Assembly: GCA_041687695.1 (NCBI GenBank)
Contig: JAWLBL010000012.1
Span: 64,001 to 128,000, forward strand
Direction: 5' to 3'
DNA: 64,000 nt
Source: Myxococcota bacterium
GTDB taxonomy: Bacteria; Myxococcota_A; UBA9042; PHBI01; JAWLBL01
The notes under the pieces are model-generated. The model made no database searches and was not told the origin of the DNA. It worked only from the letters and a program-made list of their open reading frames with translations. Numbering within the stretch: the first letter of the stretch is position 1; each line of letters opens with the position of its first letter. A program made the translations under genes and the position numbers. This document shows, piece by piece, positions 12,928 through 21,449 of the stretch.

Positions 12928-14745
12928 GTGCGCAACGTCCGCCTGGCGCCCTTCACCGGCGACGACCTCATCTATCGGTTCTGCAGCGTCGCGGGCGCCG
13001 CCGGCCGAGCCATGGTCCCCTTCGAGGCGCTCGCGGCCCAGGTGGACGCCCTGGACGTCGAGCGCGCGCCCCTGGTGACGCTCGCCGGCAGCGACCCGCT
13101 CGAGCATCCCGACTTCCCCGAGCTGGTGGCGCGTTGCCGCGCGCGCGGGCTGACCCGCTTTCGCCTGGTCACCGACGGCTACGGCCTCGCCTCGGACACG
13201 GTGATCGCCTTCCTGCGCGACAGCGGCATCGACGAGGTCCGCGTCGTCTTCCCGACCCACGACCCGCGCACCTACGCCCGCGCCATGCGCACCCGCACCC
13301 GCTTCGACGCGTGCGCCGCCGGCCTCCGCAAGGCGGCCGAGAGCGGCCTGGAGACCCACGTCGTCGTCCCGCTGACCACGTTCGCGCGCGAGCACGCCGA
13401 CGCCTTCCTCGACTGGCTCCGCCCGCTGCCCCTGTCGGGCCTGCTCGTCGAGGCGCCCGAGGTCCACCGCGTCCCCGAGCGCTTCCGCGACGCGCTGCTC
13501 CCCTACGCCGACGCCGCCCGCCTCACCGCCGCCCTGTTCGCCGAGAGCCGCCGGCAGCGCCGCGTCATCGGCGTCTTCGAGCGCTGGATCGTCCCCCCGT
13601 GCGGCGCCGACGGCGCCCTCGACGACTACGGCGACCTCTTCAACCAGCGCTACAAGCACTACCGCGCCCACGCCGACACCCCGACCACGCGCGTCGCCGC
13701 CTGCGCGACCTGCGACCTCACCTCGGCCTGCCCCGGCGTCGAGCCCGACTACCTCGCCGTGTACGGCGACGCCGCCCTGCGCCCCATCCCGCTCGACGAA
13801 GCCAACACCTGGTACACCAAGCCCATCAACCGCCTCGACGAGATCCCCTTCAAGCGCGTCTCGGCCTTCGACAACCAGGAGCGCTCGGGCAAGCGCGGCC
13901 TCCTCCGCATCAACGGCCACTGCAACATGGGCTGCTCCTTCTGCTTCGTCGACCTCAGCCAGCCCAACGTCGACGTCGCCGCGCTCACCGCCGAGCTCGA
14001 CCGCCTCGCCGCCACCGGCGTCACCGAGCTCGTCCTCTCGGGCGGCGAGCCGACCCTCCACCCCGGCCTCCCCGAGGTCGTCGCCCACGGCAAGCGCCTG
14101 GGCTTTGCCACCATCGAGCTCCAATCCAACGGCGTCCGCCTCGCCCACCCCGACTACGCCGCCCAGCTCGCCTCCGCCGGCCTCGACGTCGCCTGCCTCT
14201 CCCTGCACTCCCACGACCCCGACGTCTCCGACCGCATCACCAAGCGCCCCCGCGCCTTCGCCAAGACCGTCCAGGGCCTGCACAACCTCCGCGCCCTCGG
14301 CGTCCAGACCCGCATCTCCCACGTCATCAGCCGCCTCAACTACCGCGATCTCCCCGCCTTCGTCCGCTTCGCCCGCGCCGAGTTCGCCGACGGCCCCCTC
14401 GACATCTGCTTCGCCATCGCCCAGGAGATCTCCAGCCAGACCTCCACCTGGGTCCTGCCCACCTTCACCGACATCAAGCCCTTCGTCCGCGAGGCCCTCG
14501 ACCACTGCCTCGCCCACGGCGTCACCTTCAGCGGCCTCATCGGCCAGGGCAGCTACCCGCCCTGCATGCTCGACGGCGACCTCCGCTACTACGAGCGCGC
14601 CCTGCAAGAGGTCCACCTCAGCCGCGACACCCCCGACTGGGTCAAACCCGACCGCTGCCGCACCTGCGCCTTCGACACCCGCTGCCTCGGCGTCCGCCGC
14701 TCCTACGTCGCCACCTACGGTGACGCCGAGATCCGCCCCTTCTGA
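12928..14745 (+). CDS. Tandem double radical-SAM protein; N-terminal module lacks the CxxxCxxC triad
   Basis: C-module CNMGCSFC, SGGEP, QSNG, CRTCAFDTRCLG; N-module AGSDP, VTDG, CATCDLTSACPG; GTG start with AGGAG. Confidence 0.88.
   Translation: MRNVRLAPFTGDDLIYRFCSVAGAAGRAMVPFEALAAQVDALDVERAPLVTLAGSDPLEHPDFPELVARCRARGLTRFRLVTDGYGLASDTVIAFLRDSGIDEVRVVFPTHDPRTYARAMRTRTRFDACAAGLRKAAESGLETHVVVPLTTFAREHADAFLDWLRPLPLSGLLVEAPEVHRVPERFRDALLPYADAARLTAALFAESRRQRRVIGVFERWIVPPCGADGALDDYGDLFNQRYKHYRAHADTPTTRVAACATCDLTSACPGVEPDYLAVYGDAALRPIPLDEANTWYTKPINRLDEIPFKRVSAFDNQERSGKRGLLRINGHCNMGCSFCFVDLSQPNVDVAALTAELDRLAATGVTELVLSGGEPTLHPGLPEVVAHGKRLGFATIELQSNGVRLAHPDYAAQLASAGLDVACLSLHSHDPDVSDRITKRPRAFAKTVQGLHNLRALGVQTRISHVISRLNYRDLPAFVRFARAEFADGPLDICFAIAQEISSQTSTWVLPTFTDIKPFVREALDHCLAHGVTFSGLIGQGSYPPCMLDGDLRYYERALQEVHLSRDTPDWVKPDRCRTCAFDTRCLGVRRSYVATYGDAEIRPF

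Positions 14746-21449: not shown

Follow-up and report, generated by a model that had tools for sequence, protein, structure and literature searches.

Four adjacent genes, here called A to D, in a 64-kb stretch of the genome of a Myxococcota bacterium (positions 64001-128000 of contig C12 in genome G000, hereafter the window) very probably belong to the type-4 His-Xaa-Ser (HXS) system, whose catalogued parts lie elsewhere in the same genome. Genes A and D each carry two HxsC-type radical SAM (S-adenosylmethionine) modules, designated A1, A2, D1 and D2; in what follows G, C and L numbers denote genomes, contigs and loci, and G000 is the own genome. A preliminary description of the window had taken the four genes for a self-contained pathway of no recognised kin. 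The HXS parts of the own genome and the linkage of the same genes in G198 and G057 point instead to a fragment of a type-4 HXS system already catalogued by NCBIfam, albeit one still uncharacterised in the literature searched. The accompanying suggestion of HxsC-like, multi-step maturation machinery has fared better and is supported.

The precursor gene, encoding HxsA4, lies at C19:27799-28137 of the own genome. Its product of 112 amino acids (aa) scores 128.6 bits against NF038313 (cut-off 55) and comprises a leader of ~55 aa, with no hydrophobic signal obvious by eye, followed by HCS-HAS-(HGS)16-W, or 18 His-x-Ser repeats ending in tryptophan; NCBIfam finds no peptidoglycan-binding domain on it. 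Scanning all six frames of the genome for at least three His-x-Ser motifs close together returned 24 matches, with one true long repeat, that on C19, and none inside the window, so that the earlier remark that no precursor peptide sits beside the cluster was correct. HxsA4 heads the main type-4 HXS cluster (C19:27799-49218, L086 and L087), which also holds HxsC4 at 34.8 kb (NF038332; 545 bits, cut-off 500), about ten HxsC-like radical SAM genes, a radical SAM-methyltransferase fusion, an aKG-HExxH peptide hydroxylase (92.6 bits, cut-off 40) and a small twin-arginine protein. HxsD (TIGR03976; 72.2 bits, cut-off 50) and an HxsD-like protein (NF038315; 63.5 bits, cut-off 41) are both at C19:93-94 kb, HxsB (TIGR03978; 532 bits, cut-off 370) is on C1, and in all the system extends to at least five contigs besides that of the window. 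Given this dispersal, the window genes are therefore one of several fragments. Across the own genome the module profile matches 15 proteins with the tail motif, bearing 17 tails in total, and one of these proteins may be of another family. None of the four window proteins exceeds the cut-off of a named NCBIfam Hxs model, and no protein of the own genome exceeds that of TIGR03977 (HxsC).

In other genomes the same genes are found inside HXS clusters. One 39-kb cluster of G198 (C72:12.7-52 kb) brings together an HExxH gene, a B+D fusion, A (43% identical), HxsC4 (594.9 bits), the DUF483-like half of C (49%), HxsA4, HxsB (520 bits) and two HxsD-type genes, including the HxsD-like one. In its close relative G057 (HxsB 84% identical), A, B, D and the DUF483-like half of C accompany HxsA4 and HxsB at C3:184-223 kb, with no HxsC4 in the stretch covered. 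Genome G154 has A, D and a B+C fusion inside 11 kb, and in G044 the four genes, A and D fragmented, lie 12-24 kb from an HxsA4. We examined 22 loci around close B orthologues, many of them short, and found a C-like domain nearby in 15, a close D2 in five, a close A2 in four and all four genes in two, in orders unlike that of the window. In each of the 22 genomes carrying a close B orthologue, HxsA4 is matched (in 21 of them over the cut-off; search at E<=0.001) and D2 has an orthologue, compared with 4/201 for a close D2 in a sample of the phylum. Cultured Polyangium strains, too, have HxsA4 and a C-like domain, together with close relatives of B and D.

That sample is an even set of 201 genomes, searched for HxsA4 at E<=1e-10 and with single-protein queries that can miss distant members. 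HxsB was matched in 74 genomes, HxsA4 in 67 (65 over the cut-off), the B-type core in 41, the C domain in 37 and a close D2 in four. HxsB accompanies 37/37 C domains, 40/41 B-type cores and 4/4 close D2 modules; the preliminary description had staked its reading on homologues co-occurring across Myxococcota genomes, and so they do. Within the home class HxsB occurs in 37 of 38 sampled genomes, mostly from two families. Outside that class HxsB is present with the C domain in 9/9 genomes, with the B-type core in 13/14 and with a close D2 in 2/2, against 37/163 overall. Among the 127 HxsB-negative genomes the C domain was matched in none and the B-type core in one, weakly (G223). Rechecking of G008, G028, G153, G182 and G111, which have the C domain but gave no HxsA4 at E<=1e-10, showed HxsB over its cut-off in all five and partial HxsA4 matches under the cut-off in four. 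The dependence is one-way: carriers of the C domain have HxsB, and half of the HxsB genomes show no C domain.

HxsA4 itself is multiplied in two genomes, with three near-identical copies at C10:118-144 kb of G043 and six at C7:1155-1312 kb of G044. Several of these copies lie directly 3' of large secreted-looking proteins.

The four open reading frames (ORFs) had been described as two convergent pairs, and their coordinates and strands agree (Table 1). The convergent order is not retained in related loci where several of these genes sit together; A to D are grouped, apart from the own-genome HxsA4, both here and in L003/L004. Near-identical database entries (100% identity) exist for A, C and D, and a protein database search returned 59 matches to A at E<=1e-40, 230 to D at E<=1e-80 and 95 to C at E<=1e-15.

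Table 1. Coordinates within the window of genes A to D and of their domains, in map order
Feature	Position	Strand	Remarks
Gene A	12928-14745	+	605 aa ORF
A1, degenerate (pseudo) HxsC-type radical SAM module	12928-13827	+	CX3CX2C in 0/52 orthologues
A2, intact HxsC-type radical SAM module	13828-14745	+	CNMGCSFC, GGEP, PPC, CxxC-x5-C-x-G; PF04055
Gene B	14800-16644	+	614 aa ORF
B N-terminal B12-binding-like Rossmann domain and class-B-type radical SAM core	14800-16332	+	C-x24-C-x2-C triad; model predicted local distance difference test (pLDDT) 94
B C-terminal mobile domain	16333-16644	+	~100 aa; iterated local hidden Markov model over proteins called from fetched loci
Gene C	16696-18468	-	590 aa ORF; 4-nt overlap with the stop of D
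C C-terminal DUF483-like four-cysteine domain	16696-17556	-	GYPxCC ... PCxYxC; frequent fusion partner of B-type enzymes
C N-terminal Gfo/Idh/MocA-fold domain	17653-18468	-	Residues 1-272; EKP lysine replaced
Gene D	18465-21449	-	994 aa ORF
D C-terminal Gfo/Idh/MocA NAD(P)-dependent oxidoreductase domain, intact	18465-19487	-	PF01408
D2, intact HxsC-type radical SAM module	19614-20549	-	CNQDCWFC, GGEP
D1, divergent HxsC-type module	20550-21449	-	CX3CX2C, extra Cys26, GGEP replaced by RGxx

Pfam recognises radical SAM stretches in A (two), D (two) and B (one). We aligned A in 52 sequences (the query and 51 of 59 matches, excluding the self match and the seven weakest, paralogue-level ones) and D in 120 (the query and 119 of the best 120 of 230 matches). 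A separate alignment of the four A/D modules with one another, over the module length, supports the P-x-C, CxxC-x5-C-x-G and Y-xxx-[YH]G motifs that had been read at the ends of all four. The earlier count of five radical-SAM-type domains stands as far as presence goes; A1 is without CX3CX2C in 52/52 sequences, and therefore just four of the five have the cluster triad. The roles of the CX3CX2C triad, of GxGxxA and of the active-site histidine are common background, as is the importance of GGEP and the EKP lysine for catalysis. A1 retains its auxiliary cysteines (C225 in 51/52; C259, C262 and C268 in 52/52), and the motif residues of A2 are present in all 52 orthologues. In D1 the triad is complete in 100 of the 101 covering rows and the auxiliary cysteines in 120/120; the eight commonest variants have RGxx where GGEP would stand. 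All seven cysteines of D2 are found in 120/120 sequences and GGEP in 118, and in A2 and D2 alike the triad, GGEP and many family-specific residues are conserved at >=90%.

The proposal that both genes are tandem duplications of one module captures the repeated module and its four copies and errs if taken to mean a recent event, which is ruled out by an identity of 22-32% between modules and by the orthologue clades of a quick tree alone. In that tree of 78 modules, A1, A2, D1 and D2 each cluster with their own orthologues from other genomes (Shimodaira-Hasegawa-like approximate likelihood ratio test 99, 100, 94 and 100, respectively, with weak deeper branches). The low identity and separate clades together mark the modules as old paralogues, separately conserved. 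HxsC4 is the best NCBIfam match for both A and D, with whole-protein scores (133 and 128.8 bits) short of the cut-off of 500; those against HxsC (TIGR03977; 75.5 and 81) likewise fall short of 267.9, and by score A and D are HxsC-like paralogues outside the HxsC and HxsC4 families. Aligned with two curated HxsC4 and two annotated HxsC proteins, the modules coincide at the triad (lacking in A1), the xLC/PPC cysteine and the CxxC-x5-C-x-G tail. Of the kinship once suggested with HxsC-like or SPASM/twitch enzymes, the first thus has the cysteine landmarks behind it, and the second finds no SPASM Pfam match in A, B or D at E<=0.01. The four-cysteine tail may bind one auxiliary cluster; the tail motif by itself is not diagnostic, being carried by 46 other proteins of 5826 called.

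The D2 module is 73-76% identical to Polyangium-type orthologues (G045-G048, G050, G052-G056 and G060), B is ~50% identical, and A has only a paralogue there at 35-37%. Given such unequal identity, the locus may be a mosaic.

Gene B had been read as a CX24CX2C radical SAM enzyme, and its triad, C196/C221/C224, is invariant in all 71 aligned sequences (the query, 65 of 150 representatives and five from loci), with a spacing of 24-27 in most members of the family. The best fold matches are OxsB (Z 18.8, root-mean-square deviation (rmsd) 4.3, 425 aligned), AprD4 (Z 18.2) and MgmA (Z 17.4), and they comprise methylases as well as non-methylases. With the class B radical SAM enzymes OxsB, AprD4, MgmA, CysS, TsrM and TokK, gene B shares the layout of Rossmann domain and radical SAM core (Z 15-19); it differs in sequence (12-19% identity), in its triad stretched to C-x24-C-x2-C, in giving no match to the B12-binding Pfam family, in its extra C-terminal domain and in how often it is joined to DUF483-like and HxsC-type modules. 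The B family has 747 representatives; of the best 150, 58 carry a fused DUF483-like domain, 58 HxsC-type modules, four the whole D architecture and one the whole C architecture.

The C-terminal domain of B recurs in fusions with other enzymes of HXS clusters and, next to HxsA4 genes, as small proteins. It gave no usable Atlas match and is a candidate HxsA4-binding or export-escort domain. Stand-alone copies lie within about 1 kb of HxsA4 at G043 C10:118923, G062 C63:4189, G198 C72:42519 and G057 C3:192731, two of them with twin-arginine-like N-termini, and the domain is also present in secreted-looking proteins. Adjoining the four genes of L004, a further gene (19586-21772, - strand) joins an HxsD-like N-terminus, judged by eye, to a domain of this type and an HxsC-like radical SAM module.

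The Gfo/Idh/MocA domain that had been seen fused to D is recognised by PF01408 at 49.5 bits (cut-off 24) and has the motifs of its family, namely the Rossmann GxGxxA, the EKP lysine and the active-site histidine, K753 and H832 each being present in 119/120 sequences. Gene C was likewise rightly described as a fusion of a Gfo-like domain with a GYPxCC domain. Its N-terminal half fits Gfo/Idh/MocA structures with Z 23.1 (rmsd 3.2, 262 aligned), and this domain took up the matches in whole-protein fold searches. In an alignment of 94 rows (the query and 93 of 95 matches) the column of the EKP lysine holds 72 alanines, eight prolines, three glycines, two serines and nine gaps, with lysine in none of the 85 rows that have a residue, which suggests that the domain is probably not catalytic. 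The other half carries C423, C424, C471 and C475, invariant in C orthologues. PF04467 (DUF483) scores 18.8 bits on C, under its cut-off of 25, many orthologues have a precomputed PF04467 match, and the domain matches DUF483 clusters in the Atlas at 0.94.

System membership, the precursor gene, co-occurrence, fusions and the division into intact and degenerate modules are computed directly from these genomes; what the enzymes do can be proposed from sequence and fold. We consider that A to D probably serve as accessory tailoring enzymes of an expanded type-4 HXS system, acting in trans on the HxsA4 peptide or an intermediate derived from it, and it is comparably probable that their substrate is a peptide or peptide-derived. 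The steps of such a mechanism can be ordered with falling confidence. HxsB, HxsC4 and HxsD would carry out the first modification of the His-x-Ser repeats, probably a His-to-Ser cross-link. A2 and D2 would then be the catalytic HxsC-type modules of the locus, introducing further radical oxidations or cross-links on the repeats, with A1 and probably D1 as non-catalytic partners whose auxiliary iron-sulphur (Fe-S) site could have a structural role, bind peptide or transfer electrons. B may pair with the DUF483-like domain of C in one two-part enzyme, either a class-B-fold radical SAM methylase or an AprD4-like dehydratase. Lastly, by analogy with AprD4/AprD3, the Gfo domain of D might perform an NAD(P)-linked redox step on a keto or hydroxy product, and the lysine-less Gfo domain of C might dock onto it, which would place B, C and D in one complex. 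This exact division of labour among A to D, HxsB, HxsC4 and HxsD is doubtful in its particulars.

Several observations weigh against these genes being tailoring enzymes of HxsA4. Linkage speaks for a common system, not for a common substrate, and in the own genome HxsA4 is on another contig, at least ~77 kb from the locus; G043 has the four genes at least 48 kb from HxsA4, and in G154 HxsA4 is on a different contig. One simple repeat seems a small target for ~17 HxsC-type modules, A and D score far under the HxsC4 and HxsC cut-offs, and the proteins of solved structure related to B and to the Gfo domains act largely on sugars, nucleosides or other small molecules. A close A orthologue is found in just nine of the 22 B-positive genomes, the Polyangium-type ones having the paralogue or none. 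With the queries used, 37 of 74 HxsB-positive genomes lack a match to the C domain and 34 of 74 a match to the B-type core. Furthermore, kinship among the genomes counted, close in the case of G057 and G198, makes the counts look more independent than they are, and they serve as description.

The main alternative follows from those solved relatives of B and the Gfo domains: the genes may travel with HXS and act on a small molecule, such as a sugar, a cyclitol or something nucleoside-like, that would later be joined to the peptide or employed alongside it; B and a Gfo domain would then form a pair like AprD4/AprD3 or GenD1/GenD2. AprD4 and OxsB are among the best folds for B, sugar and inositol dehydrogenases are the best folds for the Gfo domain of C, the decarboxylase BlsE is the best solved sequence relative of the A profile, and glycosyltransferase-like ORFs, recognised by sequence inspection only, occur among the HXS genes of G044. 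However, these fold matches, at 10-21% identity, leave the substrate unfixed, and in the compact G198 cluster the 22 proteins scanned, part of its ORFs, gave no glycosyltransferase Pfam match, whereas the same cluster holds an aKG-HExxH-type peptide hydroxylase. We regard a small-molecule substrate as unlikely on this balance.

Still less likely, and distinctly improbable, is that most HxsC-like modules are not separate catalysts and that A, D and their paralogues are subunits of a large Fe-S-rich complex or scaffold, presenting the repeat peptide and passing electrons to one or two catalytic subunits (HxsB, HxsC4). The loss of the triad from A1 with its auxiliary cysteines retained, of GGEP from D1 and of the lysine from the Gfo domain of C would suit such a role, as would the freedom with which modules are fused and split from genome to genome; yet the conservation of triad, GGEP and family-specific residues in A2 and D2 would be expected if they were active enzymes, each with a substrate pocket of its own, and the Gfo domain of D is intact. 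A self-contained four-gene pathway for a cofactor or metallocluster, independent of HXS and nearest to the preliminary framing, draws on the grouping of the four genes here and in L003/L004 away from HxsA4, and is very improbable, having been largely refuted already because the genes depend on HxsB, with no C domain and one weak B-type match among the HxsB-negative genomes, and being further opposed by their position inside the full HXS clusters of G198 and G057 and by flanking genes unmatched in 22/22 related loci.

Beyond the proposal that A to D tailor HxsA4, type-4 HXS could be, in place of a defence operon, a lineage-core assembly line of ~20 radical SAM modules, turning each His-Gly-Ser repeat of HxsA4 into a heavily modified unit that is released as an undescribed peptide-derived cofactor or metal-binding molecule, with this locus as its redox-tailoring complex. 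The logic would be that of pyrroloquinoline quinone (PQQ) and mycofactocin, with 18 units per precursor. We think this rather unlikely; the locus would contribute radical SAM modules in pseudo/active pairs, an enzyme of class-B fold that needs DUF483 as its metal domain, and a Gfo heterodimer with one active and one inactive partner. If true, peptide maturation would gain its first step of the Gfo/Idh/MocA type and its first DUF483 function.

The His-Xaa-Ser system was predicted by Haft and Basu, as cited in the available part of PMC9062424. In the portion available of Li et al. (2026; PMC13128918), the canonical antiphage form is HxsD-HxsB-HxsC-HxsA, in which a periplasmic, peptidoglycan-binding effector with five HxS repeats blocks phage DNA entry; in Escherichia coli a radical-SAM-dependent change of +8 Da is found on HxsA at an SHRSS motif, HxsC binds HxsD, and the radical chemistry is given there as unresolved. 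For comparison, a triceptide radical SAM enzyme makes a -2 Da cross-link on an HAS motif (PMC12912966, available portion). As far as those parts of the canonical description go, the system here shares with it radical SAM enzymes of the HxsB and HxsC types, HxsD and a substrate with His-x-Ser repeats. It differs in that its substrate, at 112 aa of leader and 18 repeats, has no space for a peptidoglycan-binding domain, in having no four-gene operon and no HxsC over the cut-off, with core genes on C1 and C19, and in its ~17 HxsC-type modules, scattered genes and near-universal HxsB in the sampled home class. The type-4 form is far larger than the canonical four-gene unit, the sole HXS system to have been studied. 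The presence of HxsB in 37/38 genomes of the class, together with the scattering of the genes, agrees more readily with a core function that has been kept than with a mobile operon for defence, and hints that type-4 HXS, unlike canonical HXS, has such a core role.

With the NCBIfam type-4 system the own genome shares HxsA4, HxsC4, HxsB, HxsD and HxsD-like proteins, all over their cut-offs, the cysteine architecture of HxsC4 in the A/D modules, and orthologues in the one G198 cluster; the pairs of pseudo and active modules, the Gfo fusions, the CX24CX2C class-B-fold enzyme and its DUF483-like partner have no curated family. The radical SAM dehydratase AprD4 works with the NADPH reductase AprD3 (PMC5461906, in its available part). 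AprD4/AprD3 and GenD1/GenD2 share with the locus the coupling of a radical SAM enzyme to an NAD(P)-dependent oxidoreductase, and the fold searches with B and C returned, among others, AprD4 and GenD2; those pairs act on sugars, whereas the genes here are linked to a repeat peptide system. In the open literature, with subscription papers and supplements outside its scope (that of PMC13128918 could list type-4 systems), no paper turned up that names HxsA4 or a radical SAM system with a His-Gly-Ser repeat, and there was nothing on this system among the DUF483 papers listed, judged by title or abstract start.

The surroundings of the locus seem to be a separate matter in the related loci. The operon upstream (9348-12788, + strand), a three-gene run of a PF03738 glutathionylspermidine-synthase-like ATP-grasp protein, a twin-arginine lipoprotein-like ORF with a Gly/Arg-rich tail and a 217-aa protein, was considered as part of the cluster and set aside, having no match in, and no linkage to the radical SAM genes of, any of the 22 related loci. 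The CotH gene downstream was set aside on the same count (22/22 without a match). It is one of two CotH kinase-family genes less than 8 kb apart (21593-23005, - strand, and 28584-29909, + strand), between which lie a beta-propeller-like ORF, a propeller by inspection only, and a VWA lipoprotein. Near the start of the window (577-1647, - strand) is a NifH/CfbC-like Fe protein, at 277.8 and 276.9 bits under both cut-offs; the gene after it, of 592 aa and extending past the window start, completes a nitrogenase-like reductase pair. A promoter scan of the locus gave no sites and three terminator-like sites against 1.0 expected, counts that are uninformative. PADLOC returned only generic viperin radical-SAM-core matches for A and D and none for B or C, and a plasmid search with D2 only distant radical SAM matches.

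HxsA4 and HxsC4 are already curated models, and what is new is this gene module and its dependence on the HXS core. Four widespread unannotated proteins are now tied to a specific candidate substrate, which makes a direct test by mass spectrometry possible, and the locus supplies a conserved pseudo-radical-SAM module, a stretched CX24CX2C triad and the first functional lead for DUF483.

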